A stretch of DNA of 61,077 bases from an uncultured Candidatus Saccharibacteria bacterium (lineage in GTDB: Bacteria > Patescibacteriota > Minisyncoccia > Phycocordibacterales > UBA2100). Below are positions 1-57,314 of the stretch, one piece after another. Both the position numbers and the translations under genes were made by a program. The notes under the pieces were generated by a model. That model was not told where the DNA came from and made no database searches. It saw nothing but the letters and a program-made list of their open reading frames with translations. The stretch spans positions 1 to 61,077 of the forward strand of contig CAZHOB010000004.1 of the NCBI GenBank assembly GCA_964534465.1, given 5' to 3'. Each line of letters starts with the position of its first letter. Positions within the stretch are counted from its first letter, which is position 1.

Positions 1-1
1 A

Positions 2-151
2 GAAGGCGTGGAAATGGTCATGCCGGGCGACACTGTCACCTTCAAGGTGAAGCTCGTCGCCCCTATCGCCATGGAAGAGCAAGTGCGCTTCGCCATCCGT
101 GAAGGCGGCAAGACCGTCGGCGCAGGTGTGGTGACGAAAATCGTTGCTTAA
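2..151 (+). CDS. tuf: Elongation factor Tu, C-terminal fragment (gene continues off the left edge)
   Basis: Open frame from the window edge reads [49 protein letters not shown], a canonical EF-Tu domain-3 C-terminus. Stop TAA at 149-151. Confidence 0.93.
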
Positions 152-182
152 ATCTCCAACGTTCGAACAAAGGTTCGAAAAG

Positions 183-214
183 CAAAAGTCCGCCGACAGG
201 CGGACTTTTGCTTT
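183..214 (+). terminator. Rho-independent terminator after tuf
   Basis: Hairpin caaaagtccgcc-gaca-ggcggacttttg followed by a T-rich tail. Confidence 0.7.
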
Positions 215-276
215 GAATTGACACATATTATTTCGGGTTGTATTGTGCGGCAGGCAAACAGCTCTTGGAGAAACCT

Positions 277-381
277 ATGGAAATCGTGCTCGTCGTACTC
301 GGCGTCTGTCTCGGCGTAGCCCTCACGGTCTATGCCGCCAAGAAGGTCATCGACTGGCTCAACAAGGGCGGATGGTTCTAA
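277..381 (+). CDS. 34-aa single-TM small protein (below the ORF-track cutoff)
   Basis: ATG at 277 lies 7 nt after GGAG. Reads MEIVLVVLGVCLGVALTVYAAKKVIDWLNKGGWF*. Its stop overlaps the next start as TAATG (379-383). Confidence 0.45.
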   Translation: MEIVLVVLGVCLGVALTVYAAKKVIDWLNKGGWF

Positions 382-695
382 TGCCCGTGCCTACGAGAGA
401 AATGATCAGTGTTGGAGTGATCGTGACCATTGGTGCGGTTCTCCTCTTCGTCGGATTCGTGGCGGCCTTCGTATGGATAGAATTTCTCAGGCCGGTTGCA
501 AAGCCGTTCGTGCAGTCCGAATGGAAACCGGCTTACTGCGCAGCGTTTCTTTCTCGGGACAACGTGCCACTTGCAGTCTGCAACGACAGCTTTCATCCGG
601 TTTACGATGTCGTACCTGCAGGGTATGAGGGGATGCTCAGCGGTTGTGTCATCACGAATGGGCGAGTCAGAGGATGTCATCCTTCCAAGATGTAA
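381..695 (+). CDS. Membrane-anchored small Cys-containing protein, function unknown
   Basis: Internal ATG at 381 of ORF 243..695 (MPVPTREMISVGVIVTIGAVLLFVGFVAAFVW...), coupled to the upstream mini-ORF. Has one N-terminal TM helix and a hairpin follows at 701-723. Confidence 0.5.
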   Translation: MPVPTREMISVGVIVTIGAVLLFVGFVAAFVWIEFLRPVAKPFVQSEWKPAYCAAFLSRDNVPLAVCNDSFHPVYDVVPAGYEGMLSGCVITNGRVRGCHPSKM

Positions 696-700
696 ATTTT

Positions 701-723
701 AGGCCCCGGATATCCCGGGGCCT
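701..723 (+). terminator. GC hairpin (aggccccgg-atatc-ccggggcct)
   Basis: Perfect 9-bp stem immediately after the stop at 695. Confidence 0.5.
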
Positions 724-750
724 CTTCTATGCGTGAGCAAATGTCTACAG

Positions 751-850
751 GCGGGCAAGACCGTCGGCGCAGGAGTAGTAACGAAAATCGTCGCGTAATT
801 TTCGGAAAAAGTTCCGAATCGCAAAAGACCCCGAAAGGGTCTTTTGCTTT
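751..850 (+). repeat. Orphan copy of the tuf 3' end plus its 3'-UTR/terminator module (copy 2)
   Basis: ggcaagaccgtcggcgcagg is identical to 108-127. The remnant encodes [14 protein letters not shown], the same peptide as the tuf tail with synonymous changes. It is followed by a small hairpin and a terminator (aaaagaccc-cgaaa-gggtctttt, 823-845), as after tuf. Confidence 0.8.
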
Positions 851-888
851 ACAGCAGCTCGACTTAAGTTTGGCGCTGTAGTACAAAT

Positions 889-1110
889 GTGTCAGACATG
901 GAGGCAGAAATGATATCGAGAAAAATAGTCGGGCATTCGTGGGGCCCACTCGATCTTCGCGTTGACACGTATGAAATGCCCTTCGACCCTTACGGGTTAC
1001 CCAAGCTCATCATGGAACCGTTATCGCCCAAAGAGGCAGCGCAATTCGATAGGGCATGCAAGCAGCTCCGTATCGGAGTCGGCAATCACTCCAAAAAAAC
1101 AGTTGTATAG
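889..1110 (+). CDS. Hypothetical protein (73 aa)
   Basis: ORF followed by a clean terminator at 1126-1150. No recognisable motif. Confidence 0.4.
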   Translation: MSDMEAEMISRKIVGHSWGPLDLRVDTYEMPFDPYGLPKLIMEPLSPKEAAQFDRACKQLRIGVGNHSKKTVV

Positions 1111-1125
1111 GGTGTTCGTGCTTTC

Positions 1126-1150
1126 AAACCCCGCCAAAAGGCGGGGTTTT
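1126..1150 (+). terminator. Rho-independent terminator
   Basis: aaaccccgcc-aaaa-ggcggggttt followed by T residues. Confidence 0.65.
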
Positions 1151-1186
1151 GCTATACTGCGCCCTTATTCTAGACAGAACGATCAT

Positions 1187-1522
1187 ATGAAAAAGTTCTT
1201 GGTGTTGTACAGGATGGACATGGATGCGATGAGGAAGATGATGGAGACGTCGAGCGCTGAGGATAGGAAGAAGGGAATGGCAGAGTGGGGCATGTGGATG
1301 AAGAAGAATGCGGCGAGCTTTGCCGATATGGGTGGCCCGACGGGCAAGAACACGGAGATAAGCCCGAGCGGCGCCGTGCAAAAGAGCAACGACATCGGCG
1401 GCTACTCGATAGTGCAGGCCGAGAGCTTGGAGGCCGCGAGCGCTATGCTCAAAGACAGCCCGCACCTCCAGATGCCCGGAGCCGTCGTCGACCTAGCCGA
1501 AATCGTCGCGATGGGCGCATAA
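1187..1522 (+). CDS. Hypothetical small cytoplasmic protein (111 aa)
   Basis: Internal ATG at 1187 of ORF 962..1522 (MKKFLVLYRMDMDAMRKMMETSSAEDRKKGMAEW...), downstream of the terminator at 1126-1150. Its last codons and 3' flank reuse the tuf-tail module. Confidence 0.6.
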   Translation: MKKFLVLYRMDMDAMRKMMETSSAEDRKKGMAEWGMWMKKNAASFADMGGPTGKNTEISPSGAVQKSNDIGGYSIVQAESLEAASAMLKDSPHLQMPGAVVDLAEIVAMGA

Positions 1523-1575
1523 TTTTCCGAAAAAGTTCCGAATCGCAAAACCCTGCCAGGTGGTGGGGTTTTGAC
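1499..1575 (+). repeat. Third copy of the tuf-tail/3'-UTR module
   Basis: gaaatcgtcgcg ... taattttccgaaaaagttccgaatcgcaaaa matches 786-828 with one mismatch after the stop. A terminator-like hairpin follows (aaaaccc...ggggtttt). Confidence 0.75.
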
Positions 1576-1665
1576 GTCCGTTCCTATTCATGTAGAATCC
1601 CCCTACTGTTATCCACCCAGCGCTTCATATTAGTTTCGAATCAACTAGTACAATAATGAAACACC

Positions 1666-1869
1666 ATGCATAGGGACGCTTTTTTTAGATTTTTTGCAAA
1701 TTTACCCATTCCTGTTAGACGAGAAGTCATTCTCGACTTGGGGGAAAAGGGTCCGATTACGTGGGAGGTCGCATATAGAGAGATAAAGGCTGATACGGAG
1801 TTGGGCAAAGAAATCCTTGCTAAACTTATTGAACTGGGCTTTATTCCTCTTGAGGAGGGCGAAAAATAA
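1666..1869 (+). CDS. Hypothetical small protein (67 aa), first gene of a low-GC cassette
   Basis: ORF in an AT-rich segment. Its stop lies 1 nt before the next start. Confidence 0.5.
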   Translation: MHRDAFFRFFANLPIPVRREVILDLGEKGPITWEVAYREIKADTELGKEILAKLIELGFIPLEEGEK

Positions 1870-1870
1870 T

Positions 1871-2089
1871 ATGAACGAAAAAGAAATTCCACAGGATGTT
1901 ATTAATTTGGTGATAGCTCGACTACAGACAATCCCGTCGAACGTCTCCGTTTCTATTGGTAACGATGGTAGTTTCACGATAAATCAACTCATTGAGCGAA
2001 TACGGAACCAAGACGAAATTGGTAAAAAAATGGTGGAAATGCAACTCGCATATATCAGGTCGTGGGGAAAACCGCCCGTAGCCGCCTAA
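1871..2089 (+). CDS. Hypothetical small protein (72 aa), second gene of the low-GC cassette
   Basis: ATG at 1871 (MNEKEIPQDVINLVIARLQ...), packed between its two neighbours. Confidence 0.5.
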   Translation: MNEKEIPQDVINLVIARLQTIPSNVSVSIGNDGSFTINQLIERIRNQDEIGKKMVEMQLAYIRSWGKPPVAA

Positions 2090-2092
2090 ATC

Positions 2093-2713
2093 ATGGGCCT
2101 GTTGATAACAAGACCAAAGCATGATGCCGCGACGCATTATCTTTTTCATTGGTCTACCGAAATCGTGGACAATGCTAATGAAAAAGGTTTGCGCACAACC
2201 GATTTACAAAAAAACAAGGCAAATAAGAGAGATTTTCAGAGCTATCTCAAGAAAAACGTTCATGACATTGTGATAATCAACGGTCATGGCGATGCGTCAT
2301 CTGCATGTGGAGAGGACAATGAAGAGTTGCTTTCTGTGGGCGATGGTGATGATCTTTTCAAGAACAAAAAAGTCTTTATACGCGCATGCGATTGCGGTGC
2401 AGTTTTGGGACCTAAATTAGTTGAAAAAGGAGCAAAGGGTTTTATTGGCTACGCACAGCCATACATTTTTTTGACAGATAAAGATTCCGTTCACGAGCCA
2501 TTGAAAGATGAGCTAGCCAGCCCTGTGCTCGACTGCTCAAATCAAGTTGCCCGATCTTTATTAAAAGGGAAATCGATACAGGAGGCGCACGAAGATAGCT
2601 TGAGAATGTATCAAGAAAAAATTGATCAGCTCTCGACCAGTAATTCCGCAAAAACCTATCTTTTGCCTTTTTTGAATTGGAACAGAGCGTTTCAGGTAGC
2701 TATAGGGTCTTAA
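2093..2713 (+). CDS. Caspase-fold (clan CD)-like protein with a His/Cys dyad
   Basis: IVIINGHGD, then the Cys of VFIRACDCG 34 residues after the His. This is the order and spacing expected of caspase/CHAT/gingipain-type His-Gly ... Ala-Cys dyads. Assignment is by motif only. Confidence 0.5.
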   Translation: MGLLITRPKHDAATHYLFHWSTEIVDNANEKGLRTTDLQKNKANKRDFQSYLKKNVHDIVIINGHGDASSACGEDNEELLSVGDGDDLFKNKKVFIRACDCGAVLGPKLVEKGAKGFIGYAQPYIFLTDKDSVHEPLKDELASPVLDCSNQVARSLLKGKSIQEAHEDSLRMYQEKIDQLSTSNSAKTYLLPFLNWNRAFQVAIGS

Positions 2714-3135
2714 CCAAGTAAATATACAGACGGCATCAGGTAACAGTCGTAGTGCTAGACTGTGCGAATGGGGCAATCTGTCTTCGGCCTAATGCTAATG
2801 GTGCTATCCTCGTTTCCATTGTTTAAGCCTCGTCTTTACTGGCGCGTGGCAAAATTTTTATCGTTCGGGTTATATATCGCTCCGTCATCCTATCTTGGCG
2901 GCGAGGATTGCGCCTGGGTAAAATTATCGGGATTTCTGGGTTTCCTGTGCGGTTTTGCGCTCCTCGTACATTTGATTGTGTTGGGGTAGAAAAGGTGTCG
3001 GAAAAAAGTGTCACGCACCGTGTTTGATGTACTTTTGAGATGAATCCTTTGCTTAGGTTGCCGCCGCCGGGGTGGTTTTTGCTTTTTGTGGGGCTGGGGA
3101 TTTTGCGGGGGACGGGGAGCTTAAGTGGATACGCC

Positions 3136-3160
3136 ACTAACGCAACTAAGTTGCGTTAGT
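3136..3160. repeat. Perfect 11-bp palindrome (actaacgcaac-taa-gttgcgttagt)
   Basis: Read directly from the sequence, about 80 nt upstream of the 3242 gene. Possible operator or hairpin. Confidence 0.5.
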
Positions 3161-3241
3161 TGGAAAAGAAAAGGCCTCGCGGTGCGAAGTTGAAAAATTC
3201 GAGGGGTGATGTAGAGTCTTCGCAGGAAAAGGAGAAGTTCG

Positions 3242-3505
3242 ATGAACAGCAAAATAGCCGGCATTATTGCAATGAGCTTTGTGGTTGCCGTAGTTGTAGG
3301 TGCTCTGGCGTTCGTATTTTGGATCGTCAATAAAGAATTCACGTGCGCCCCAGTGCCTGTAGGTGAGCGCATGTACAGGTTCACATGCCACAGCGGCGAA
3401 GACGCTGCCCAAGCGGTGCGTGCGTTTGAAAAAGCAAACAATGTGCACGTGGAATACATCATTCCGCACGGGCGGAGCAGCATTATCGTTAGCGTGAAGC
3501 CGTAA
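3242..3505 (+). CDS. Small membrane-anchored C-x(n)-C protein, family member 1 of 4
   Basis: AAGGAG lies 7 nt upstream of the ATG. N-terminal TM helix, then CAPVPVGERMYRFTC ... IIVSVKP. Same architecture as the genes at 47587, 47937 and 48701. Confidence 0.6.
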   Translation: MNSKIAGIIAMSFVVAVVVGALAFVFWIVNKEFTCAPVPVGERMYRFTCHSGEDAAQAVRAFEKANNVHVEYIIPHGRSSIIVSVKP

Positions 3506-3528
3506 CAAGAAGTTCTAAGAATATGTGA

Positions 3529-3552
3529 GCGGCCACACCGTGGCCGCTTTTC
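3529..3552 (+). terminator. Rho-independent terminator
   Basis: gcggcca-cacc(g)-tggccgc followed by TTTT. Confidence 0.6.
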
Positions 3553-3672
3553 TGTAGGTATCTGCCGGTGACTCTATTGCAAGAACACAGCGGGGTCAAT
3601 CTCACATGTAAGCTGGTTTTGACGTGCATTAAATCATGTGTATGCTGTCGGGAGCAACAGGAGGAATGTTCC

Positions 3673-4143
3673 ATGGATATCAACACGTTGAGTTCCCGCG
3701 TGCTCGGCGGAGTCATCTGGCTTCTTTTTCCGCTACTTCTCGTCAATCTCGCGCTCACGCCTTGGTCCGGGTATGGAATGCCCCTCTCGGATGTAGTGGT
3801 CACGGGCGGCATGTTCTTCGGCGCTTTTATCTTTCTCACGCTGGTCAGCAACAGCCAAGCTGAAAGTCACGAGCATAAGGAGAGTGTCGCATTGGGACCT
3901 GTCACCGTGAACGTATCCGCGAAAAGCAGCGGTCGCCTCAACTTCGCGTACATATTCTACACAGCGATCTTCGTTGTCTTAACTGTGGTTGTGGGATGGA
4001 CCGTGTATCAGAAGTATCTTCTGATCACCACGGGTCATGCGTCGATCAGGCCCGATATGTTCCTCGTCATCGACTGCTACGCGATCTTTCTCATCGGCCA
4101 GAACATTTTCGATCACATCAGAAAAAAGCGCGCACGCGCGTAG
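3673..4143 (+). CDS. Integral membrane protein, function unknown
   Basis: Internal ATG at 3673 preceded by AGGAGG (MDINTLSSRVLGGVIWLLFPLLLV...). Several hydrophobic segments. Confidence 0.5.
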   Translation: MDINTLSSRVLGGVIWLLFPLLLVNLALTPWSGYGMPLSDVVVTGGMFFGAFIFLTLVSNSQAESHEHKESVALGPVTVNVSAKSSGRLNFAYIFYTAIFVVLTVVVGWTVYQKYLLITTGHASIRPDMFLVIDCYAIFLIGQNIFDHIRKKRARA

Positions 4144-4217
4144 TGCCAAAGCCGCCTCCATGGCGGCTTTTCCTTTGGTCATTGCGGGGTGGGGAGGCGG
4201 GTGTACCATTCACCTCT

Positions 4218-4896
4218 ATGGATCCGCTCTACAAGAAGGCAATTTTGCAGGGCGTGGTGGGGATGGCTGTTTTTGTCGCTTTCATTTTCTTGCCTGCAGG
4301 CACATGGAATTATTGGCAGGGTTGGCTCTACCTCGCGGTTTTTTTCCGTCACTACTATAGGTATGACCGCCTATCTTGCCATGTACGACAGACCGCTTAT
4401 GGAGCGCCGCATGCAGGCAGGGCCGCAGCATGAGAAGGAATGGGCGCAAAAGATAATCGTCTCGCTCATTATCCTGACATTTTTTGGCGTTATTGTTCTC
4501 TCCTCGTTCGACTACCGATTTCATCTCTCTCCGGTGCCGGCGTATGTGTCTGTGATAGCGGAAGTTCTCATCGTGCTGGCGTTCCTCTTTATTTTCTGGG
4601 TAATGAAGGTCAATAGCTATGCCGCCGCCAACGTCCGCGTCGAGGCAGATCACGAGATCATCGACACAGGCCCGTACGCATACGTGCGCCATCCGATGTA
4701 CGCCGGCGCGCTCTGGCTTTTCGTCGGCATGCCGCTCGCGCTTGGCGCATGGTGGCCGCTCGGTCTCATCGTCATTGTTCTGCCAGTACTTTTCTGGCGC
4801 CTGCTTGATGAGGAAAAAATATTGCGCCGCGACCTTGCCGGCTATACCGAGTACACGCAGAAAGTGCGCTATCGCCTCATTCCGTACGTTTGGTAA
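4218..4896 (+). pseudogene. ICMT/phospholipid-methyltransferase-family membrane methyltransferase, reading frame broken at a T7 run
   Basis: The N-terminus MDPLYKKAILQGVVGMAVFVAFIFLPAGTWNYWQGWLYLAVFF is in frame 0. The remainder SVTTIGMTAYLAMYDRPLMERRMQAGPQHEKE...GPYAYVRHPMYAGALWLFVGMPLALG is in frame +1. The switch is at ttttttt, 4339-4345. This could be an assembly error rather than a true pseudogene. Confidence 0.75.
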
Positions 4897-4935
4897 ATAG
4901 AAAAAGGCCGCGCCTTGGCGCAGCCTTTGACGAAA

Positions 4936-5388
4936 TTACGCTCTACGGATCCTCACCTGATATACGCCCCATTGGGCCATCTCGGTGACTCCGACGTACA
5001 GAACGAATAAGGGCAAGAAGGTAAAGACGGTCACGCCTATGATGCCGACCAATCCTCCTGCCAGCACACCCAGTGCTATGCCAGTGCAGAGCGCAGCGGT
5101 TGCGAGAGCCCTGAAGTGGCTCCGGATGTCGGCAGACGCGGAAGTCTCAAAGAGCCGGGGATGTTTCCTATGCACTGATTCGAGTATCCATTCCAAGAAT
5201 ATCTCGACAAGGCGAAGCAGTGGGAGAGCAAGCGCGCATACTATGATGCTTACGACAAACGCCTTGCCAAAGCCGGCGCCTGTCCATGTGAGCCAGAAGC
5301 AGAGCGCGGGTGCTGAGAATAGCGTTAATGTGGAAAGCCAGTCGTGCAGTGCAGAGGCAGCACTGCTCGGTCTCCAGGTGGGTTCCAT
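4936..5388 (-). CDS. Integral membrane protein, function unknown
   Basis: AAGGAG lies 7 nt upstream of the ATG on the minus strand. Multiple hydrophobic helices. Confidence 0.5.
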   Translation of the reverse strand: MEPTWRPSSAASALHDWLSTLTLFSAPALCFWLTWTGAGFGKAFVVSIIVCALALPLLRLVEIFLEWILESVHRKHPRLFETSASADIRSHFRALATAALCTGIALGVLAGGLVGIIGVTVFTFLPLFVLYVGVTEMAQWGVYQVRIRRA

Positions 5389-5494
5389 CGATCTTCTCCT
5401 TTCTGCGAGAAGTTATATACGAAGCACGTTTTTTGTCTAGGCATGGACAAGATCGAAGAAAAGCCCCGGCCGTGTAGCCGGGGCTTTACGATTT

Positions 5495-5998
5495 CTATTT
5501 TGCTTTTTGGCGGGGGACCATGCTGACGGTGAAGCCTACGACGCCGATTTTATCGAACGTCCTTCGGGCAACACCGCTTTTCAAAATGGCTTCAAACCAG
5601 AATTCGGGAAAAGCGCCATTGAAAGCAAGTGCGACCTTGTCTTCGTTGGCTTCCCACTCGACTCTCGAGCGGCTACTTTCCATGAGGGCTACGACTTCCT
5701 CGGGCGTCATGGTTGGGCGCGCCGGCGTCGAAACCGAAACGGGTGCAAAGCGGGCTTTTTCGCTTCGGATGTGATCGAAGAGCGACTTTTCGGGTCCATT
5801 GATAGCGAGCGCCGTCCCCATGGAATTAAATGCCTCGAAAAGCTCATCGTGAAGCTCACGAATTTCCATTCGCTCTGTGAGCACCACGAGTTCCTCGAGT
5901 CGCGTGTACAGCTGGTTCCTGTCTCTTCCACACGTGCCCGCGTCGACCCTCATTTTCTGAAGTGAAGCGAGCAAAGCTTTTTCGGCCGTCAGTGACAT
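5495..5998 (-). CDS. Hypothetical protein
   Basis: Start chosen at MSLTAEK, where GGAGG lies 5 nt upstream. Terminator hairpin at 5458-5490 on the downstream side. Confidence 0.55.
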   Translation of the reverse strand: MSLTAEKALLASLQKMRVDAGTCGRDRNQLYTRLEELVVLTERMEIRELHDELFEAFNSMGTALAINGPEKSLFDHIRSEKARFAPVSVSTPARPTMTPEEVVALMESSRSRVEWEANEDKVALAFNGAFPEFWFEAILKSGVARRTFDKIGVVGFTVSMVPRQKAK

Positions 5999-6118
5999 GT
6001 CATCCTCCACCGTGGATTTTCTGGCCTCATACTATCACTTTGTAGGAATAGGAATACCTAATTGCCCCTTCATGTGCACCGGAGTAGCGTGCTGGCAGAA
6101 CAACAGTGGAGGCTCGCA

Positions 6119-6253
6119 ATGGACAAACTCCTCCGTTTTTATGTCACCATAGCGGTGTTCGCGATCTTGATCGCTGTGATCGCCACGATCGCGCGCAAGG
6201 GCTCACGCAAAAAGCCTCAGCAGCAGCCTCCGAAACAAGCGAGGCTTCTATAG
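6119..6253 (+). CDS. 44-aa single-TM protein with a basic Gln/Pro/Lys tail
   Basis: GGAGG upstream of the ATG at 6119 (MDKLLRFYVTIAVFAILIAVIATIARKGSRKKPQQQPPKQARLL). Terminator at 6259-6286. Confidence 0.4.
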   Translation: MDKLLRFYVTIAVFAILIAVIATIARKGSRKKPQQQPPKQARLL

Positions 6254-6359
6254 ATTCAAAAGGCCCCCAAAAAGGGCCTTTTTGCTGCATCTCTTACTGT
6301 TCCGTTCGTGAAAAAAGGAAAAAGGCCGCGGGTTGTGCGGCCTTGAGAGCGAATGTGCA

Positions 6360-6542
6360 TTATGGCGGGTACCATGCAGCGGAAATGCCCGTCCATGGAT
6401 CGGGAAGCCATGCTTCGTCCCTTGTGTTCTCTGGCTTCACGTGCGGACACGAGGCGCAGGGGTTGTTGGTCCCGTGCAGTCCTATTTCGTCGCCGCCCTT
6501 CGGGCAGCCAGCATCACAATTGACCATCTTCAACCTCTCCAT
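6360..6542 (-). CDS. Small Cys-containing protein (55-60 aa; start could also be 6527)
   Basis: (MERLK)MVNCDAGCPKGGDEIGLHGTNNPCASCPHVKPENTRDEAWLPDPWTGISAAWYPP. GGAGAGG precedes the second Met. Terminator at 6318-6345 on the downstream side. Confidence 0.35.
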   Translation of the reverse strand: MERLKMVNCDAGCPKGGDEIGLHGTNNPCASCPHVKPENTRDEAWLPDPWTGISAAWYPP

Positions 6543-50191: not shown

Positions 50192-50200
50192 TAATAATTT

Positions 50201-50596: not shown

Positions 50597-50603
50597 TAAA
50601 TAT

Positions 50604-51149
50604 ATGAGTCGAACTGGAAAGCTTCCTATAAAAATTCCCGCAGGCACTGAAGTGTCGGCTACCCCGGGTGAGATCACCGTCAAAGGCAAGGGCGGCACGC
50701 TCAAGAAATCGCTGCACCCGAATATCAAGGTGGCGGTGGCAAATGGTGAAGTGCTCGTCACGCCCAAAGACGACTCGCGCATCTCGCGCGCGCTCTGGGG
50801 TACCTACGCGGCGCACGTGCGCAACATGGTCTCTGGCGTCAACACGCCGTTCCAAAAGAAATTGCAGATCGAAGGCATCGGCTTCCGCGCTGAAATGGCC
50901 GGCAAGCAGATCAAGCTCGCTATTGGCTTTTCACATCCGGTGCTCGTCAGTATTCCTGCAGGCATCACCGCAGCTATCGACAAGAACATCATCACTGTGA
51001 GCGGCGCCGACAAAGAGCAGGTGGGTGAATTCGCAGCGTCTATCCGCGCACTCAAAAAGCCGGAGCCGTACAAGGGCAAGGGTATTCGCTACGAAGGCGA
51101 GGTCGTGCGGCACAAAGCCGGCAAGAAGGCAGCCACCGCCGCAGCATAA
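50604..51149 (+). CDS. rplF: 50S ribosomal protein L6
   Basis: MSRTGKLPIKIPAGTEV...PEPYKGKGIRYEGEVVRHKAGKK. Confidence 0.95.
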   Translation: MSRTGKLPIKIPAGTEVSATPGEITVKGKGGTLKKSLHPNIKVAVANGEVLVTPKDDSRISRALWGTYAAHVRNMVSGVNTPFQKKLQIEGIGFRAEMAGKQIKLAIGFSHPVLVSIPAGITAAIDKNIITVSGADKEQVGEFAASIRALKKPEPYKGKGIRYEGEVVRHKAGKKAATAAA

Positions 51150-51155
51150 TAATTA

Positions 51156-51276
51156 TGACTAACAAAATTAGCACATTTCATCGTTGCGGAGCCTCTGCGT
51201 ACTTCTCGCCGTACGTTCAGTACGGCTCGAAGGCCGCATTCTCCGCGCCTCGAACTGCGCATAATTTTGTTCGTCA
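51156..51276. repeat. ~121-nt imperfect palindrome with 15-nt terminal inverted repeats, inserted between rplF and rplR
   Basis: tgactaacaaaatta (51156-70) against taattttgttcgtca (51262-76), 14/15 complementary. Central hairpin gccgtac-gttca-gtacggc (51208-26). Inner arms pair partly (gcggag/ctccgc). Confidence 0.7.
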
Positions 51277-51289
51277 CTCCATCTAATTT

Positions 51290-51637
51290 ATGTCTACCAC
51301 TTCACGACAAGAGAAACGGGATATGCGACACAAGCGCGTGCGCGCCAAGGTCATGGGCACTATAGAGCGCCCGCGCCTCTCCGTGTACAAGTCCAACACG
51401 CGTCTCGTGGCACAGATAATCAACGACGACGAAGGCAAGACCATTGCCGCGGTATCTTCGGCCGACGAGAAGGGCAAGACGCCGCGCGAGCGGGCTGAAG
51501 CTGCAGCTGCTACACTCGCCAAGAAGGCGGGGGAGAAGAAGATAAAGGCCGTCGTCTTCGATCGAGGAGGATTCCAGTACGTGGGCACTATCAAGGCATT
51601 TGCCGATGCGGCACGCGCGGCAGGATTGCAATTTTAA
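51290..51637 (+). CDS. rplR: 50S ribosomal protein L18
   Basis: RHKRVRAKVMGTIERPRLSVYKSNTRLVAQIINDDEGKTIAAVSS...VVFDRGGFQYVGTIKAFADAARAAGLQF. Confidence 0.95.
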   Translation: MSTTSRQEKRDMRHKRVRAKVMGTIERPRLSVYKSNTRLVAQIINDDEGKTIAAVSSADEKGKTPRERAEAAAATLAKKAGEKKIKAVVFDRGGFQYVGTIKAFADAARAAGLQF

Positions 51638-51647
51638 TCTCTATATT

Positions 51648-52283
51648 ATGGCTGACGAACAAAACATCACAGATAAGGTAGCGCAGAGCGCACCGGTTCA
51701 GGGAGCGGATGCTGCTGCGCCGCGCCCGCCTGCGCAGGCAGGTCCTCACGAGCGTCGCCCTTTTGGCGGGGATCGCCGTGGCCGCGGACGCGGAGGTGAT
51801 CGTGGCGGTCGTGGTGGCCGTGGTCCCCGTGGTGGCGATGAGCGCCGTTCCGAATTCGCACAAAAGATGATAGGTATCCGCCGTGTCGCGCGCGTGATGG
51901 CTGGTGGCCGCCGCTTCAATTTCTCTGCAGCACTCGTCATTGGCGACAAGAAGGGTCGCGTGGGTGTGGGATTGGGCAAAGCAGCCGACACCCAGCTTGC
52001 CATCGAGAAGGCCACACGTTCCGCCAAGAAGCACATGATCACCCTCACGCTCACCAAAAATCGCTCTATCTCGCGCAATGTGGAGTCCAAATACTGCGCA
52101 TCTGTCGTGGAGATACGCCCTTCGCCGGGCCGCGGATTGGTCGCTGGTTCTTCGGTGCGTACCGTATTGGAACTCGCCGGCGTGTCCGATGTGACCGCCA
52201 AGCTCCTCTCGCGCAGCAAGAATCCGGTCAACAACGCCCGCGCCGCCATCGAAGCGCTCAAGCAAATTTCGATCCAAAAATAA
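51648..52283 (+). CDS. rpsE: 30S ribosomal protein S5 with an Arg/Gly-rich N-terminal extension
   Basis: RRPFGGDRRGRGRGGDRGGRGGRGPRGGDERR, then MIGIRRVARVMAGGRRFNFSAALVIGDKKGRVGVGLGKA... Confidence 0.93.
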   Translation: MADEQNITDKVAQSAPVQGADAAAPRPPAQAGPHERRPFGGDRRGRGRGGDRGGRGGRGPRGGDERRSEFAQKMIGIRRVARVMAGGRRFNFSAALVIGDKKGRVGVGLGKAADTQLAIEKATRSAKKHMITLTLTKNRSISRNVESKYCASVVEIRPSPGRGLVAGSSVRTVLELAGVSDVTAKLLSRSKNPVNNARAAIEALKQISIQK

Positions 52284-52284
52284 T

Positions 52285-52731
52285 ATGGCCGATCTCAATC
52301 TACTCAAACGATCAGGGAAGCGACCGTACCGCCGTGTAGGACGCGGTCAGTCGAGCACCCGCGGCAAACAATCGGGCCGTGGCGGCAAAGGGCAAACAGC
52401 GCGTGCCGGTCACAAGATACGCCCCGCGCTCCGCGACATCATCAAGAAGATCCCAAAGCGCCGCGGATTCGGCAAGAATCGCGGTCGCACGCACGTGCCG
52501 CGCCCCGATCCGCTCACCATCACGCTCGACAGGCTCAATGGCGTATATGAGAACGGCGCAGAAGTTACGTACTCTTCGCTCATCGCCAAGGACATACTCC
52601 ATCCGCGCGTAACGCGCAGGGTCAAGGTAGTCGGGGGAGGTGAGCTCAAGAAAAAGCTTTCATTCAAGGGTGTTCCGGTGTCTTCGTCTGCCCGTGTGGC
52701 CATCGAGAAAGCGGGCGGCACAATCACATAA
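52285..52731 (+). CDS. rplO: 50S ribosomal protein L15
   Basis: MADLNLLKRSGKRPYRRVGRGQSSTRGKQSGRGGKGQTARAG. Starts 1 nt after the rpsE stop, so there is no L30 gene in between. Confidence 0.93.
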   Translation: MADLNLLKRSGKRPYRRVGRGQSSTRGKQSGRGGKGQTARAGHKIRPALRDIIKKIPKRRGFGKNRGRTHVPRPDPLTITLDRLNGVYENGAEVTYSSLIAKDILHPRVTRRVKVVGGGELKKKLSFKGVPVSSSARVAIEKAGGTIT

Positions 52732-52734
52732 CGT

Positions 52735-54009
52735 ATGTGGGACGCATTCGTACGCAAAATAAAGCTCCTCGTCGAAGATGAGACGCTTCGCACGCGCATA
52801 CTTTTCGTCCTCGCGGCGCTCGTCGTGTTCCGTTTGCTCGCGGCCATTCCCGTGCCGGGCATCAACGCTGCGCAGCTTGAGCAATTTTTGTCCAACAACC
52901 AGTTCCTCGGCCTTCTCAATGTGTTCTCCGGCGGTGGATTTTCCAATCTCTCCATCGTGATGCTCGGCGTCGGCCCGTACATCACCGCCTCCATCGTCAT
53001 GCAGCTCATGACCATCCTCATTCCGAGCCTCAAGGAAATGTATCAGGAGGAGGGCGATGCCGGTCGCATGCGCTTCATGCAGTACTCGCGTTACCTCACG
53101 GTGCCGCTCGCTTTCATACAGGGCTTCGGATTCCTTCTCTTGCTCCGTCAAAATGGCATCTTGCCGCCGCTCGATATTTTCCACACGGTGACCAATGTAT
53201 TGGTGGTCGCGGCAGGTTCGCTTCTCCTCATGTGGATCGGTGAGCTCATCACGGAATTCGGCGTCGGCAACGGCGTATCGCTCCTCATCTTCGCCGGTAT
53301 CGTTTCGCGCATCCCGAGCGATATCGGTCAGGTCATCTTTGCCTTTGATGTGACCCAGCTCCCCGCATATCTCGGATTTTTGGCCGCCGCGCTCACCATC
53401 ATGGCCGGCGTCGTGTTCATTACCGAAGCAGAGCGCCCGATCCCCGTGACCTACGCGCGCCGCGTGCGCGGCATGAAGGTGATGGGCGGCGTCTCCACGT
53501 ACTTGCCGTTGCGCGTCAATCAAGCCGGCGTTATCCCGATCATCTTCGCGCTCTCAATCTTGCTCTTTCCGCAGATGATAGCGACCTTCCTCTCGCACAG
53601 CGCTATCGCAGGCGTCTCTACGGTGGCCGACGTGGTCGTGCGTGCACTTGCCAATCAATGGGTCTACGGCATCATGTACTTCTTCCTCGTCTTCCTCTTT
53701 ACCTATTTCTACACCGCCATCACCTTTGAGCCGCACCAAGTGGCCAAGAATCTCCAGAAGAACGGCGCCTTCATCCCCGGTGTACGCCCCGGTGAGACCA
53801 CGGCCATTTACCTCGGCAACATCATCACGCGCATCACGCTCGTGGGCGCGCTCTTCCTCGGCGCACTCGCTGTGCTCCCGCTCATCCTGCGCGGTATCAC
53901 TGGCATTACCGCGATCACGATCGGCGGCACCGCGCTGCTCATCGTCGTTTCCGTAGTTCTCGACCTCGTCAAGAAGATCGACGCCCAAACCTCCATTCGC
54001 GAGTACTAG
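52735..54009 (+). CDS. secY: Preprotein translocase subunit SecY
   Basis: IPVPGINAAQLEQF...GGGFSNLSIVMLGVGPYITASIVMQLM...GNGVSLLIFAGIV...INQAGVIPIIFA. Confidence 0.95.
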   Translation: MWDAFVRKIKLLVEDETLRTRILFVLAALVVFRLLAAIPVPGINAAQLEQFLSNNQFLGLLNVFSGGGFSNLSIVMLGVGPYITASIVMQLMTILIPSLKEMYQEEGDAGRMRFMQYSRYLTVPLAFIQGFGFLLLLRQNGILPPLDIFHTVTNVLVVAAGSLLLMWIGELITEFGVGNGVSLLIFAGIVSRIPSDIGQVIFAFDVTQLPAYLGFLAAALTIMAGVVFITEAERPIPVTYARRVRGMKVMGGVSTYLPLRVNQAGVIPIIFALSILLFPQMIATFLSHSAIAGVSTVADVVVRALANQWVYGIMYFFLVFLFTYFYTAITFEPHQVAKNLQKNGAFIPGVRPGETTAIYLGNIITRITLVGALFLGALAVLPLILRGITGITAITIGGTALLIVVSVVLDLVKKIDAQTSIREY

Positions 54010-54086
54010 AAAAATCGCCGTTGACGGGCCCTTTTTTTCACGTATAAAGGTGTGGGTCAACACCGCATGTTCAGAAGGAGAATGTC

Positions 54087-54281
54087 GTGGGATCAACGAT
54101 TGGATCACGTACGGCCAAACCGCCGCTTGGAATTCCACCGCACGACATCTGGTATAAGCTTGTGGTTCAGGAGCGTATTAGCCAAATACTTGCCGCAATG
54201 AGTAGATATAGCGATGCAGGAGAGTCGATACCGGCGGCATGGGTCGACGAACTTTCCTCCCACCTTGAGCACAAGTCGTAA
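54087..54281 (+). CDS. Hypothetical small protein (64 aa, GTG start)
   Basis: AAGGAG lies 6 nt upstream of the GTG. Terminator hairpin at 54293-54320. Confidence 0.4.
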   Translation: MGSTIGSRTAKPPLGIPPHDIWYKLVVQERISQILAAMSRYSDAGESIPAAWVDELSSHLEHKS

Positions 54282-54454
54282 GTCGTCTCGTTAGCCCCGG
54301 AATGTACTGTCCGGGGCTTTTACTTTGCTGATCTTGATTTTTAACACTGTTACATTTGTTTTCTAATCTGAAAATCCGCGCGATTTTTTCTCAATCTGTG
54401 GTAATCTATTGCCCCAAGTATCAAGGGCGGCGTTTTGTTAGGTACAATGCTGCC

Positions 54455-55306
54455 ATGGCGACCGACTTTGCAGAGCTTGAGCGGCAGCTGGGGCAGATAG
54501 AGGACGTGAACGGCAGCACGTGGTATTACATTTGGCACTATCACAGGGTCGCGTACATTTCGGCGGTCATTGCGAGTCTGGTGGGGAGCGCCGCGCTCGT
54601 AGCTTTGGCATATCGCATATTCGGCACAAATCCGGTGATATTTAGTTTGGTTTTCACTCCCGCAGCGCTCATCGCAGTGTTGCACGAGTACTATCGAAGC
54701 CAGGTACAGCACGTATTCATACGAGAGCTCGCGATCGCACTCGGATTTACGTATGCAGCAGAGGGGGATATGTCCACCGTAGTGGGGGTATTTTTTAGGA
54801 TGGGGCACGATCAGTCCATTACAGACGTGATGACCGGCCGATACCAAGAGAAGCTCGTACAGATGTACTCCTACCAAATGACGATCGGGTATGGAAAGAA
54901 TTCTCACACCTACCAGTTCACCATTTTTGAACTCGACCACGGCAGCGCGCTCCCGCACGTGCTCATGAACAAAGACCAATTTCCCGAAGCGCTCGGGGAG
55001 TGGAGTACCGGATTGGAAGCCGTGCGCCTCGAAGGTGATTTCAACGACATATTTTCGCTCTATGTAGAGAAAGGCAAACAGATGGAAGTGCGGGAAATAT
55101 TCCAGCCCGATGTGATGCAGGACATTATGGGCGCGGAACCGTTTTCCATGGAGATCTCCGGTACCAAAGTCTATCTCATTCGAAAGGGCGCGTTCTCGAG
55201 CAAAGGCGCGTTCATTACGCTCCTGCGCGCCGCTGCACGGATGTATGAGGAAATAGCTGCCGGACTTGTGGCTGTGGACACAGATCCCGCGACAACTGTT
55301 CCATAA
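54455..55306 (+). CDS. Membrane protein with 2 N-terminal TM helices and a soluble domain, function unknown
   Basis: Internal ATG at 54455 (MATDFAELERQLGQIEDV...), with TACAAT 6 nt upstream. TM segments ISAVIASLVGSAALVALAY and VIFSLVFTPAALIAVL. Confidence 0.5.
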   Translation: MATDFAELERQLGQIEDVNGSTWYYIWHYHRVAYISAVIASLVGSAALVALAYRIFGTNPVIFSLVFTPAALIAVLHEYYRSQVQHVFIRELAIALGFTYAAEGDMSTVVGVFFRMGHDQSITDVMTGRYQEKLVQMYSYQMTIGYGKNSHTYQFTIFELDHGSALPHVLMNKDQFPEALGEWSTGLEAVRLEGDFNDIFSLYVEKGKQMEVREIFQPDVMQDIMGAEPFSMEISGTKVYLIRKGAFSSKGAFITLLRAAARMYEEIAAGLVAVDTDPATTVP

Positions 55307-55375
55307 GAGAATTTTTTGTTTTCTAATGCGCTTTTTTGCGCGATTTTTTTACCTTCGCGTGCTACTCTCAATGCA

Positions 55376-55954
55376 ATGAAACAGATCGTCGTCATCGCAG
55401 GGCCATCGGGTACAGGAAAGAACGCCATCATCGACGAACTCATCCGGCGATATCCCAAATGCACCCGCCTCGTGACCGCCACGACCCGCGCCCCTCGTCC
55501 CGGTGAGCAAGAAGACGTTGATTACTACTTTTTTTCCGAAGAAAAATTCTTCGGCGAGCTCAAAGCGGGCAACATCCTCGAACATCGCGAGATAAAATCG
55601 CTCGGCACGCACTATGGCGTATATAAGCCGGACCTTGAAGCGAGGCTCACGCGCGGGGAAGTGGTGCTCGCGCACCTCGACATCATCGGCGTGAAGTATC
55701 TGCACGAGCACTACGACGCCACATCGATATTTATCATGCCCGAAAATGAGGGTATGCTTCGCTCACGCATCAAGCGCTCTCGTCCGGAGATGACAGAAAA
55801 GGAGCTCGACGACCGCATGCTCATCGCCAAACACGAAATGGCGGACGACGCGCCGCAGTGCGACTACCGTGTCGTCAACGCTGAGGGCAAACTCATGCAA
55901 ACAGTGGACGACATCGTTGAAATTCTCAAGAAAGAAGGCTACACTCTGCAGTGA
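55376..55954 (+). CDS. gmk: Guanylate kinase
   Basis: MKQIVVIAGPSGTGKNAIIDELI...TTRAPRPGEQEDVDYYF...LEHREIKSLGTHYGV. Confidence 0.85.
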   Translation: MKQIVVIAGPSGTGKNAIIDELIRRYPKCTRLVTATTRAPRPGEQEDVDYYFFSEEKFFGELKAGNILEHREIKSLGTHYGVYKPDLEARLTRGEVVLAHLDIIGVKYLHEHYDATSIFIMPENEGMLRSRIKRSRPEMTEKELDDRMLIAKHEMADDAPQCDYRVVNAEGKLMQTVDDIVEILKKEGYTLQ

Positions 55955-55956
55955 AC

Positions 55957-56550
55957 ATGACACCTGTCACCGTAGCGTTCTTTGGGATATCAGGCTCCGG
56001 AAAGGGGACGCAGGCGGCGCTCATTGAGAAATATTTGAAAGAGAAAGACCCTTCGCGCGGTATCGTGCGTCCCGAAATGGGCAATTTGCTGCGCAGTTTT
56101 ATGAACACCGGCACGCCGCTTGCGATGAAGATCGGCGACATTCTGCATGCCGGCGGGCTCGCGCCCTCTTTCATGCCCATCCACCTGCTCACCGTCGCGC
56201 TCAATGCGCAGTTCGACGGCACACAGCACGCGATATTGGACGGTGTGGCGCGCAGGCCCGACCAATCGCGCGCTCTCGACGACTTTATGAAAATTTTCGG
56301 CCGCACGGAACTCCACGCCATAGAACTCAAGCTTTCCAAAGAGACCGCCAAGGCGCGGCTCGTGGCACGTGGTCGTTTCGACGACGCCAAAGAAGAGGCG
56401 ATAGCCAACCGCTTCTCGTGGTATCAGGAACACGTAGTCCCGTCCGTGGAAGAGCTCCGCAAACTCGGCTGGAAGGTCCACGATATCGACAGCGAGCCCG
56501 ATGTCGACACGATTCACAAAAGTATCCTCTCTGTGTTAGGTTTAGCGTAA
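55957..56550 (+). CDS. adk: Adenylate kinase (short form, no zinc lid seen)
   Basis: FFGISGSGKGTQAALI...ILDGVARRPDQSRAL...ARGRFDD. A GTG at 55951 is an alternative start. Confidence 0.85.
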   Translation: MTPVTVAFFGISGSGKGTQAALIEKYLKEKDPSRGIVRPEMGNLLRSFMNTGTPLAMKIGDILHAGGLAPSFMPIHLLTVALNAQFDGTQHAILDGVARRPDQSRALDDFMKIFGRTELHAIELKLSKETAKARLVARGRFDDAKEEAIANRFSWYQEHVVPSVEELRKLGWKVHDIDSEPDVDTIHKSILSVLGLA

Positions 56551-57314
56551 TGATCGCGAGATCCAAGGAAGAAATCGCAGCCCTGCGCGAGGGCGGCAGG
56601 CGTTTGGCGGCTCATGTGCGCGCCCTTTCGGCTATGGTGCGGCCCGGCATTACCGGCAAAGAGCTCGAGGATGCAGCTCGCAAGATGGTGGAAAAAGACG
56701 GCGATACACCGGCGTTCCTCGGCTACCGCGACAGTAAAGACAAGATAGGCTATCCATCGGCACTCTGCCTTTCTATCAACGACGCCATCGTCCACGCGCC
56801 TGCCGGCGGAAATCCGACGATACAGGAAGGTGACATCGTGTGTCTCGATTTCGGTATCAAGCACAAAGGTTTTTTTACCGACCACGCCGTCACCGTGATA
56901 GCCGGGAAGCCACAGAGCGAGAAAGACGAAGTGCTGCTCAAGGGCACCAAAGAAGCGCTCGCGGCGGGGATAGCGAAGGCGCGCGTGGGCAACACGACAG
57001 GCGATATCGGCTACGCGGTGGAATTGGTCGCGGAAAAATACAATTTCGGATTTCCGCGCAATCTTTCGGGCCACGGGGTGGGCAACGCCGTGCACGAAGA
57101 GCCGCACGTGCCCAATTTTGGCGCAGAAGGCAAGGGGGAAGTGCTCGTGGAGGGTTTGGTCATCGCCATTGAGCCGATGATGACGCTCGGCAGCGGCGAT
57201 CTTTATATAGACAAAGATGGCTATTCGTACCGCACCAAGGACGGCTCGCGCACCGCGCATTTCGAGCACACTGTTTTGATAACAAAGAAAGGACCCGAAA
57301 TTTTGACCAAGTAA
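56550..57314 (+). CDS. map: Methionine aminopeptidase, type I
   Basis: The start overlaps the adk stop (TAATG). FLGYRDSKDKIGYPSALCLSINDAIVHAPAG...DFG...GHGVGNAVHEEPHVPNF...IEPM...HFEHTVLIT. Confidence 0.93.
   Translation: MIARSKEEIAALREGGRRLAAHVRALSAMVRPGITGKELEDAARKMVEKDGDTPAFLGYRDSKDKIGYPSALCLSINDAIVHAPAGGNPTIQEGDIVCLDFGIKHKGFFTDHAVTVIAGKPQSEKDEVLLKGTKEALAAGIAKARVGNTTGDIGYAVELVAEKYNFGFPRNLSGHGVGNAVHEEPHVPNFGAEGKGEVLVEGLVIAIEPMMTLGSGDLYIDKDGYSYRTKDGSRTAHFEHTVLITKKGPEILTK

Follow-up and report, generated by a model that had tools for sequence, protein, structure and literature searches.

Previous work demonstrates that a few core-gene intervals in bacterial genomes concentrate accessory genes and that these genes turn over quickly; many such hotspots have no recognisable mobile elements and show homologous recombination in the core genes that flank them, above all in transformable bacteria (Oliveira, Touchon, Cury & Rocha 2017, PMC5635113). 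Here, we investigated a 61,077-nucleotide stretch of an uncultured bacterium (contig CAZHOB010000004.1 of assembly GCA_964534465.1; hereafter the window), in which the tuf-S10-spc supercluster of translation genes is split by five accessory islands. The S10-spc region is the textbook case of conserved gene order, and studies of uncultured bacteria regularly rely on it as one marker block in binning and phylogeny. We found that four of the five breaks are insertion points reused among relatives of this organism and that conserved promoters lie at them. We consider it probable that the window is genuine chromosome, that its ribosomal cluster is a row of separately promoted units, and that the boundaries between these units are tolerated insertion sites filled by recombination from other genomes.

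How does this locus compare with known hotspots? The likeness lies in the same flanking core genes, the concentration of accessory genes and the lack of a recognisable mobile element in the window islands. As in the definition of a hotspot used there, the same core interval holds differing accessory families, and expansions occur at only 4 of 21 junctions. The sites described here differ in lying inside the S10 and spc operons, intervals that usually rank with those interrupted least, in being defined across genera of an uncultured clade rather than in a species pangenome, and in preserving displaced gene ends. Three features are new relative to known hotspots: the sites sit within the ribosomal cluster, our screens detected no recombinase genes, and allelic remnants are preserved. 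In the literature that we searched, we came across no account of such a pattern in genomes of the Candidate Phyla Radiation (CPR).

Insertions at translation genes have precedents. Streptococcal integrative and conjugative elements (ICEs), which use tyrosine integrases, insert in the 3' ends of rplL, rpsI and rpmG, between repeats of 12-54 bp in which the end of the gene is included (Ambroset et al. 2016, PMC4701971). Like these elements and the related integrative mobilizable elements (IMEs) and cis-mobilizable elements (CIMEs), the insertions described here occupy the extreme 3' end of a translation gene, leave that gene intact, come with direct repeats that include the gene end, and could accrete in tandem. 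Unlike them, they carry no integrase or conjugation genes that we could find, have inserts down to 25-900 bp, are flanked by repeats of variable length, and target tuf, rpsJ, rplB and rplE. In Gammaproteobacteria and Bacilli, examples of insertions into the extended ribosomal cluster lie between operons, such as bfd-bfr or ilv-leu between str and S10, and small gene insertions between units are described as the usual first step of disconnection (PMC8046335). The str/S10 site is equivalent to tuf|rpsJ here. The arrangement described here differs from those examples: two recurrent sites, rplB|rpsS and rplE|rpsN, split the classical S10 and spc operons from within, a third, rpsJ|rplC, comes right after the first gene of S10, and the blocks remain colinear despite tens of kilobases of intervening DNA.

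In cyanobacteria and plastids, rps10 goes together with the str operon (fusA-tufA-rps10), and rpl3 is the first gene of the large cluster. Both that arrangement and this one separate rpsJ from rplC, but here rpsJ is also apart from tuf and has its own promoter, and there are two further internal breaks. Finally, ribosomal proteins and tuf are frequent among the genes called transferred in Patescibacteria, a survey result compatible with recombination in these genes (PMC12455944).

Four fixed, reused insertion points in a CPR subgroup alter what should be expected of contiguity checks and of operon prediction. Organisms of Kaiserbacteria type have very small genomes, and the window islands contain no recognised mobile-element or recombinase genes; the allelic gene-end remnants form a rare, directly readable record of recombination between genomes. 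The locus also yields candidates, namely conserved promoters, a putative rplC attenuator, and a SagB/YcaO cluster between two ribosomal genes.

Insertion points in the ribosomal cluster

The initial annotation had placed the ribosomal genes of the window in blocks separated by five gaps, and Pfam recovers each gene at those positions:

2-151, plus strand: 3' end of tuf (EF-Tu domain 3; Pfam GTP_EFTU_D3, E 3.5e-14), which closes block 1
11349-11756, plus strand: rpsJ coding sequence, a single-gene unit (Pfam Ribosomal_S10)
37772-40180, plus strand: block rplC-rplD-rplW-rplB (Pfam)
43453-47081, plus strand: block rpsS-rplV-rpsC-rplP-rpmC-rpsQ-rplN-rplX-rplE (Pfam)
50006-54009, plus strand: block rpsN-rpsH-rplF-rplR-rpsE-rplO-secY, without rpmD (Pfam)
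55376-55954, plus strand: gmk (Pfam)
55951-56550, plus strand: adk (Pfam)
56550-57314, plus strand: map (Pfam)

From rpsJ through secY, the genes keep the canonical order, all on the plus strand; what is lost is adjacency at tens of bases. The gaps measure 11,197 bp (tuf-rpsJ, island 1), 26,015 bp (rpsJ-rplC, island 2), 3,272 bp (rplB-rpsS, island 3), 2,924 bp (rplE-rpsN, island 4) and 1,366 bp (secY-gmk, island 5), and they add up to 78% of positions 1-57314.

The nearest relatives by rplB are metagenome-assembled genomes of Candidatus Kaiserbacteria/Paceibacterota (loci L001-L003, at 81%, 73% and 69% identity, the best being MFKT01000001 at 81%). The window has a GC content of ~55%, in line with Kaiserbacteria/Paceibacterota bins, and lacks rpmD (L30), with the rpsE stop at 52283 and the rplO start at 52285. 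CPR bacteria typically lack L30; the median rpsE|rplO gap is 97 nt within the clade versus 291 nt in control bacteria. By the rplB identities, the GC content and the missing L30, therefore, the organism is a Kaiserbacteria-like member of the CPR/Patescibacteria, an ultra-small bacterium of groundwater type whose clade forms a subgroup of Paceibacteria/Parcubacteria.

We mapped the window proteins onto 103 related loci, 23 of them taken from genomes at rplB homologs and 80 from metagenomes at rpsJ homologs. About 10 kb per side of each locus was covered, and all relatives are metagenome assemblies. The controls were 57 loci of other bacteria, five other CPR lineages among them. In the relatives, the rplB|rpsS gap exceeds 500 bp in 27 of 33 loci (median 922 bp), with 7 more open-ended, and the rpsJ|rplC gap does so in 21 of 53, with a further 14 contigs lacking rplC inside 2-10 kb. 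Gaps of this size also occur at tuf|rpsJ (9 of 80 loci) and at rplE|rpsN (7 of 22), and at none of the 17 other junctions among the 103 related loci. The control gaps never reach this length: rplB|rpsS spans at most 149 bp (0/54 above 500 bp; Fisher P 5e-17) and rplE|rpsN at most 245 bp (0/41; Fisher P 3e-4). The secY|gmk gap has no parallel, as secY adjoins gmk in L002 and L003, the two relatives with gmk after secY. The window is the extreme member of a clade-wide pattern, with ~45 kb of cargo.

Could the islands have been joined to the cluster by a chimeric or mis-joined metagenome assembly, with the inserted DNA coming from elsewhere? Such an error would fit the lack of a match to the window in indexed assemblies, the repeated tuf ends, a palindrome present three times, and the aberrant GC of positions 1600-3100. 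But the joins themselves recur. The order tuf, gap, rpsJ, island 2 is found also in L085 (a 232-kb contig), L087 and L100; the island 2 genes followed by gene o37132 and rplC are found in L001 and L002; and gaps at rplB|rpsS and rplE|rpsN are found in dozens of contigs. Moreover, the repeats are 80-90% identical over 40-110 nt, which is too short and too diverged for assembler collapse, and all blocks keep canonical order and strand. Because the joins are common to independent assemblies, we regard an assembly error as highly improbable.

Some loci show other departures from the usual arrangement. In L089 (10306-10808), rpmC directly follows rplD and six genes are missing, and in L119 (5774-11087) the rplC-rplB block lies upstream of tuf-rpsJ, followed by rpsS. 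In the window, the usual infA-rpmJ-rpsM-rpsK-rpsD-rpoA-rplQ genes are missing 3' of map (57315-61077); their place is taken by purD (57451-58743) and by a large protein that weakly matches HerA/DUF87, so the alpha operon is detached too. Three ribosomal proteins of the window extend beyond their Pfam domains: S10 by a Lys/Ala-rich N-terminal extension of ~35 aa (11349-11455), S19 by a C-terminal tail of ~35 aa (43729-43803), and S5 by an N-terminal extension of ~85 aa rich in Arg-Gly repeats (51600-51850).

Promoters and terminators at the proposed unit boundaries

Why would a cluster of essential genes tolerate insertions? The initial annotation had expected selection against disrupting the cluster and had pointed to a promoter-like element before each resumed block and a strong hairpin after each interrupted one. 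The boundary elements of the window are as follows:

11279-11756, plus strand: rpsJ unit, with promoter (11279-11307), GGAGG site and coding sequence (11349-11756)
37591-37771, plus strand: rplC promoter and ~150-nt leader, ending in a terminator-like hairpin at 37740-37763 (terminator scan)
43386-43452, plus strand: rpsS promoter (score 10/12), then a 5' GC hairpin with a T-rich tract; same layout in relatives
49809-50005, plus strand: rpsN promoter and ~165-nt leader, conserved in L001 and L002, with equivalents in L003, L011, L023, L115 and L116
179-214, plus strand: tuf terminator hairpin with A and T tracts at its sides (fold -35.1 kcal/mol, z -6.4)
40187-40222: nested hairpin 3' of rplB with the CCTGCC palindrome (fold -33.3 kcal/mol, z -4.8), doubling as terminator for the convergent gene 40229-40831 (minus-strand terminator-scan match)

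The rpsS promoter at 43386 (TTGACA-17-TACATT) and the rpsN promoter at 49809 (TTGACT-17-TATAGT) are the top two sigma-70-like matches in 37-56 kb, at 10/12 each. Those at 11279 (TTGCAT-17-CATACT, to 11307) and 37591 (TTGCAT-16-TATACT) score below the scanner threshold, yet their position and sequence are kept in relatives, so all four promoter-like elements stand, two as the best-scoring and two as weaker but conserved. The rpsJ promoter motif TTGCrTTTTT..GTGCATACTC is kept in L083, L085, L087-L089, L092, L093, L099, L100, L102 and L103. For rpsS, the arrangement TTGACx-17 nt-TAnnAT, GC hairpin, T-rich tract and ATG is found in ~25 of 33 relatives, with stem sequences that vary (leaders folded singly). 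Promoters are present at the unit boundaries even in loci whose gap has shrunk to 76-106 nt or was never wider (L091, L107, L145).

Because the promoters of rpsJ, rplC, rpsS and rpsN are conserved across the clade, we infer that the four junctions are ancestral transcription-unit boundaries and that the cluster is transcribed as several units throughout the clade. The units would be one ending in tuf, rpsJ alone, rplC to rplB, rpsS to rplE, and rpsN to secY and beyond. With a promoter for each unit and a hairpin at most ends, DNA placed at a boundary would leave essential expression uninterrupted, and the four boundaries could act as safe harbours in which accessory DNA accumulates and turns over. 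If the boundaries predate the inserts, insertion breaks no operon. The paradox of selection against disruption then disappears, and that expectation does not hold at these four junctions, which are conserved-promoter boundaries even at gaps under 110 nt.

The hairpins only partly follow the initial description. Strong hairpins follow tuf, rplB and rplE (47089-47119, z -6.3), and rpsJ is followed by a perfect GC palindrome (-18 kcal/mol, z -1.6), but no hairpin was found 3' of secY (fold z +0.5). The palindrome CCTGCCTGCCGGCAGGCAGG has three matches in the window (11764-11783, 40192-40211 and 57378-57397, after rpsJ, rplB and map) against 0.01 expected; it may represent either a terminator type common to these genes or a small repeated element. 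L008 has similar CCTGCC...GGCAGG hairpins between rplB and rpsS, upstream of the latter.

The leader of rplC is a candidate transcription attenuator, a class exemplified by the E. coli S10 leader with L4. In relatives, its promoter reads (G)TTGCA-17-TATAGT/TATACT and is followed by a leader of 100-150 nt with the terminator-like hairpin last, an arrangement seen only in loci where rplC is apart from rpsJ or rpsJ is off the locus. At least nine loci have it: the window (37619-37771), L001:8009-8111, L002:8215-8311, L003:8036-8148, L011:7834-7936, L089:8864-8966, L107:11651-11758, L113:6396-6498 and L145:4385-4487. A conserved GGACCAATGG box (CAATGG) precedes the terminator, which carries CCATTG in its 5' arm and loop, so that the two could pair; this antiterminator pairing is found in 85% of cells versus 22-62% in slid controls. 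In the window, both sides are altered together (CACTAGCG with CGCTAG), giving two compensatory pairs, both from the window sequence. Rfam gave no family for this leader, only a chance-level match to RsmY.

The rpsS transcript would begin with its GC hairpin (43416-43452; ~25 relatives), with the T-rich tract and the ATG ~15-25 nt further on. This hairpin could be an attenuator, or it could be a 5' stabiliser combined with an AU-rich site at which ribosomes load onto a message that has no Shine-Dalgarno sequence. Within the rpsS-rplE block, the AT-rich junction motif TAATCTATG reported earlier was confirmed, with four matches (43801, 44857, 45307 and 46175) against 0.29 expected, each at or just before a gene start. 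The contrast drawn with GGAGG sites in island genes found no support: GGAGG lies upstream of 5/47 island open reading frames (ORFs) versus 1/21 ribosomal genes (rpsJ), and most of both classes are without a Shine-Dalgarno site.

Displaced gene ends and the entry of DNA

How did the inserted DNA enter? The 3' end of the gene upstream of the gap is duplicated 25-900 bp downstream in eight loci: the window (tuf, rpsJ), L085 and L087 (tuf), L127, L135 and L153 (rplB), and L105 and L145 (rplE). In L127, a MazEF pair lies exactly between two rplB ends, and in L145 a toxin-antitoxin pair lies between two rplE ends. The footprints of the window are these:

215-748, plus strand: cassette 1, with promoter-like site 218-246 (10/12), membrane-protein ORFs 277-381 and 381-695, and hairpin 701-722
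749-850, plus strand: displaced second tuf 3' end with terminator, aligning to 103-214 (last 15 tuf codons and terminator)
851-1575, plus strand: cassette 2, gene o962 (1187-1522), then a third partial post-tuf copy (~1497-1575)
11764-11809, plus strand: palindrome CCTGCCTGCCGGCAGGCAGG (11764-11783), then displaced rpsJ 3' end SIDVKMM* (11786-11809)

Cassette 1 is bracketed by two tuf 3'-end copies. The second copy encodes a peptide identical to the working end, and all 5 of its nucleotide differences are synonymous changes at third positions. The third copy is recognisable between 1511-1550 and 787-826 (90% match). The rpsJ remnant repeats the last seven codons of the gene (11733-11756) 30 nt downstream; 5/7 codons differ, all synonymously. 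Similarly, L085 carries a second tuf 3' end (6710-6769) 25 nt past the real stop, with a small hairpin between, and all eight codon differences are synonymous. Over eight of these footprints, working ends and remnants differ at 42 synonymous and 11 nonsynonymous codons, and 45/59 nucleotide differences fall at third positions (P = 1.8e-11). A duplicate that arose in situ and then decayed would not have such a third-position bias. The two copies must have diverged under selection in different genomes before they were joined, so the footprints are direct evidence of recombination with DNA from other cells.

Entry would depend on recombination that uses the 3' end of the conserved upstream gene as its anchor. 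The incoming piece would supply its own version of the gene end, and the resident end would be displaced downstream as a remnant. The likeliest route may be uptake of DNA from related cells, as in transformation, followed by homologous recombination on the side of the gene and an illegitimate join on the other side; a dedicated integrase would not be needed. Under this scheme, island 1 would have grown by serial insertions after tuf, and island 2, which is old and vertically kept, would have been enlarged by gain of paralogs.

The alternative closest to the streptococcal precedent is that the islands are remnants of site-specific integrative elements (ICEs, IMEs or CIMEs). A tyrosine integrase would have used the 3' ends of tuf, rpsJ, rplB and rplE as attB, with a replacement end carried on attP, followed by accretion and loss of the integrase. 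The three tuf repeat copies bracket two tandem cassettes, as accretion would produce, only upstream 3' ends are duplicated and never downstream 5' ends, and ICEs are known at the 3' ends of rplL, rpsI and rpmG (PMC4701971). Direct repeats that include the 3' end of the target gene are indeed found at tuf (103-214, 749-850 and ~1497-1575) and at rpsJ (11733-11756 and 11786-11809). However, Pfam, NCBIfam and PHROGs searches of the window islands found no integrase, relaxase, conjugation, transposase or phage families. A motif search, which was crude, found no tyrosine or serine recombinase in ORFs of at least 150 aa in the window and the 103 loci, and the 25 most frequent families in a set of 123 cargo ORFs include no integrase. 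A tRNA scan found no tRNA gene in the window, so there are no tRNA-type att sites in it; Rfam on the whole window gave nothing at gathering threshold. Moreover, with repeats of 24 to ~110 nt at four target genes, several unrelated integrases would be required, and many of the bracketed inserts are merely 25-900 bp. We therefore judge integrative elements to be rather unlikely. Given the recombinase-free screens, the span of repeat lengths and the four target genes, DNA uptake plus recombination is favoured, in keeping with the many transfer hotspots that have no mobile elements but recombine at their flanking core genes (PMC5635113).

Several points nevertheless weigh against recombination at tolerated boundaries as the explanation. 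No remnants of rplB, rplE or secY 3' ends were found in the window islands at either the nucleotide or the peptide level, and no duplicated 5' end of a downstream gene was found in any locus. Duplication of upstream 3' ends only would fit integrase att sites better than it fits undirected illegitimate recombination, and an integrase that acts in trans or is encoded farther away is a serious rival, given the crude motif screen and the flanks of ~10 kb. Island DNA other than positions 1600-3100 is not clearly foreign in composition. The databases hold no close relative of the window against which the recency of islands 3-5 might be dated. Finally, the case for independent transcription comes only from conserved, consensus-like promoters.

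A broader proposal, possible although we hold it to be doubtful, is that the ribosomal cluster is the main gene-exchange platform of the clade, with the 3' ends of tuf, rpsJ, rplB and rplE sufficiently conserved to serve as universal homology anchors for integrase-free cassettes, each equipped with a promoter and a terminator of its own and acquired from distantly related cells by natural transformation. If so, each capture would leave a displaced gene end, and the cluster would work in the manner of an integron platform, with essential genes as its base. The initial annotation had called the locus a preferred landing pad for foreign DNA. This is borne out in part, since four junctions are repeatedly filled, mostly with unrelated cargo, and carry allelic remnants, but the largest island is old, no mobile-element machinery was found in the window islands, and secY|gmk is without parallel.

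Contents of the islands and cargo in relatives

The cargo differs among relatives. In all-against-all comparison, gap ORFs are non-homologous between loci, apart from two cases: three loci have members of a 130-aa DgkA-like family, and L018 has a PA14-type protein in common with the window. The close kin L127, L128 and L153 have a common rplJ-rplL, winged-helix-like and MscS-like set that this screen missed; it lies in the rplB|rpsS gap at L127:8799-9678, L128:6801-7693 and L153:13476-14390. Pfam assigns MazE and MazF to the rplB|rpsS gap of both L001 and L127, and a YafQ/ParE toxin to the rplE|rpsN gap of L145. It also recognises an NYN-domain protein (L135), a PaaX Cas2-like protein (L105), an IS200-like transposase (L018) and a reverse transcriptase (L005). 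Other cargo among the 123 ORFs includes rplJ-rplL (L10, L7/L12), MscS-like, DAGK, pyr and methionyl-tRNA synthetase genes (Pfam). L090 carries an AbiE-like pair, recognised by eye without a family search.

These differences bear on a third explanation, an ancient fixed architecture in which one ancestral split separated the blocks and ordinary vertical genes have filled the spaces since, with no continuing insertion. The initial annotation had reasoned that insertions identical in all relatives would point this way, and the comparison gives a divided answer: the island 2 core is shared, and other cargo mostly differs. The presence of island 2 core genes between rpsJ and rplC in many relatives, the clade-wide conservation of the four boundary promoters and the near-native composition of most island DNA all suit a fixed arrangement. 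They must be set against cargo at rplB|rpsS and rplE|rpsN that is mostly unrelated among lineages, against gap sizes from 76 bp to >10 kb, and against the toxin-antitoxin modules, IS200-like transposase and reverse transcriptase among the cargo. In addition, the synonymous divergence of the displaced ends shows that alleles of different genomes were joined, the segment 1600-3100 is foreign in composition, and ~9.8 kb separates o962 from rpsJ in the window, whereas an o962 homolog lies directly upstream of rpsJ in L085, L087 and L098. A wholly fixed architecture is thus quite improbable, and filling of the boundaries by recombination remains the reading we prefer.

Island 1 (152-11348) has, besides the two cassettes, the following content:

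1600-3100, plus strand: low-GC foreign segment with a three-ORF operon (1666-1869, 1871-2089, 2093-2713)
3100-11278: rest of the island, with an ICMT/PEMT-like methyltransferase (4363-4896; Pfam PEMT/ICMT), a secreted 402-aa protein (8660-9868) and orphan ORFs

The initial annotation had suggested a composition profile along the window, and only 1600-3100 emerged as clearly foreign. Its GC is 0.434, and its tetranucleotide correlation to the core is 0.15, whereas the remaining large island segments reach 0.72-0.86 and the two shortest segments 0.60; the core reference is biased, since it contains the test blocks and ribosomal genes are compositionally special, and it serves only to flag this outlier. 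The segment gave no match in Pfam, PHROGs, PDB or IMG/VR; by eye, the product of ORF 2093-2713 has His-Gly and Ala-Cys motifs reminiscent of caspase-like proteases. PHROGs searches on ten island 1 ORFs returned nothing, nor did IMG/VR scans with the 2093-2713 and 8660-9868 proteins, and PDB sequence searches with four orphan proteins gave nothing meaningful. Codon-position GC and a gene model support ~15 plausible ORFs at a coding density of ~50%, fewer than the "about 20 genes" first counted between tuf and rpsJ. In 3100-8600, coding density is unusually low, the coding signal is weak and several long ORFs are without the codon-position GC pattern of the genome, which suggests decaying or very young genes.

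Island 2 (11757-37771) contains these genes, identified with Pfam and NCBIfam:

14522-16189, minus strand: 3'-phosphoadenosine 5'-phosphosulfate (PAPS) synthase (bifunctional sulfate adenylyltransferase/adenosine 5'-phosphosulfate kinase)
18295-19581, minus strand: PaaK/F390-like ligase
19583-20926, minus strand: PaaK/F390-like ligase
23454-24782, plus strand: PaaK/F390-like ligase
24755-26422, minus strand: PQQ-propeller protein
26587-27978, minus strand: o26587
27969-28679, minus strand: SagB-family dehydrogenase (NCBIfam 107 bits, cut-off 78.4)
28676-30190, minus strand: SagD-type YcaO (Pfam YcaO 142.8 bits, cut-off 25.7; TOMM_cyclo_SagD 161 bits, below the 219 cut-off)
31689-32474: TPR protein
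32487-36911: PA14/PKD giant protein, 1474 aa
37132-37587: o37132

The island also has paralogous orphan families. Its core (SagB/YcaO, PQQ-propeller, TPR and o37132) likewise lies between rpsJ and rplC in L001, L002, L085, L087, L094, L096, L100 and L101, and o37132 is directly upstream of rplC in L001, L002 and L089-L091. Because the core holds the same position in eight relatives, island 2 is mostly an old, clade-conserved resident, ancestral rather than recently arrived. As in the clusters for thiazole/oxazole-modified microcins (TOMMs), a SagB-family dehydrogenase and a SagD-type YcaO are adjacent; unlike in those clusters, the YcaO does not reach the cut-off of the TOMM family, a PAPS synthase and three PaaK-like ligases accompany the pair, and the genes are fixed between rpsJ and rplC throughout a clade. 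Family searches of island 2 identified no TOMM precursor peptide and no E1-like partner. The divergent 109-aa ORF 30233-30562, which has no family match, co-occurs with YcaO in L096. The combination of SagB and SagD-type YcaO with three PaaK-like adenylate-forming ligases and a PAPS synthase is itself of note, as is the position of the SagB/YcaO core beside rpsJ in many contigs of Kaiserbacteria type. The PA14/PKD protein has internal repeats (families D1 and D3), and a 34-nt inverted repeat with a 50-nt spacer follows at 36925-37042. A related 1007-aa PA14-type protein fills the rplB|rpsS gap of L018.

Islands 3, 4 and 5 have no counterpart in the gaps of relatives and are lineage-specific membrane and transport gene sets:

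40229-43385: island 3, with a 200-aa orphan (40229-40831, minus strand), a fused ABC transporter (40874-42691; Pfam ABC_tran) and small ORFs
47082-49808: island 4, with the rplE terminator (47089-47119), a protein with four transmembrane segments (47129-47485, minus strand), small membrane proteins (47521-47853 and 48701-48937) and small ORFs
54010-55375, plus strand: island 5, with a 64-aa ORF and a 302-aa membrane protein (54398-55306), without family matches

The best homologs of the island 3 ABC transporter, among 5.8 billion proteins, have no more than 31% identity and align to less than half of the query, too distant to date the island. Island 4 ORFs have no Pfam match. The claim that small secreted or membrane proteins dominate the islands is sound to the extent that many ORFs look so, a call made by eye from translations rather than with a dedicated predictor. 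The two small membrane proteins of island 4 are paralogs with a common CxxKDFGxGVYKFxCxGDKF motif and a terminator in common (repeat families D5 and D6). The hairpins of the same island at 48213 and 48941 are 97% identical, and a third at 47858 matches them at 69%.

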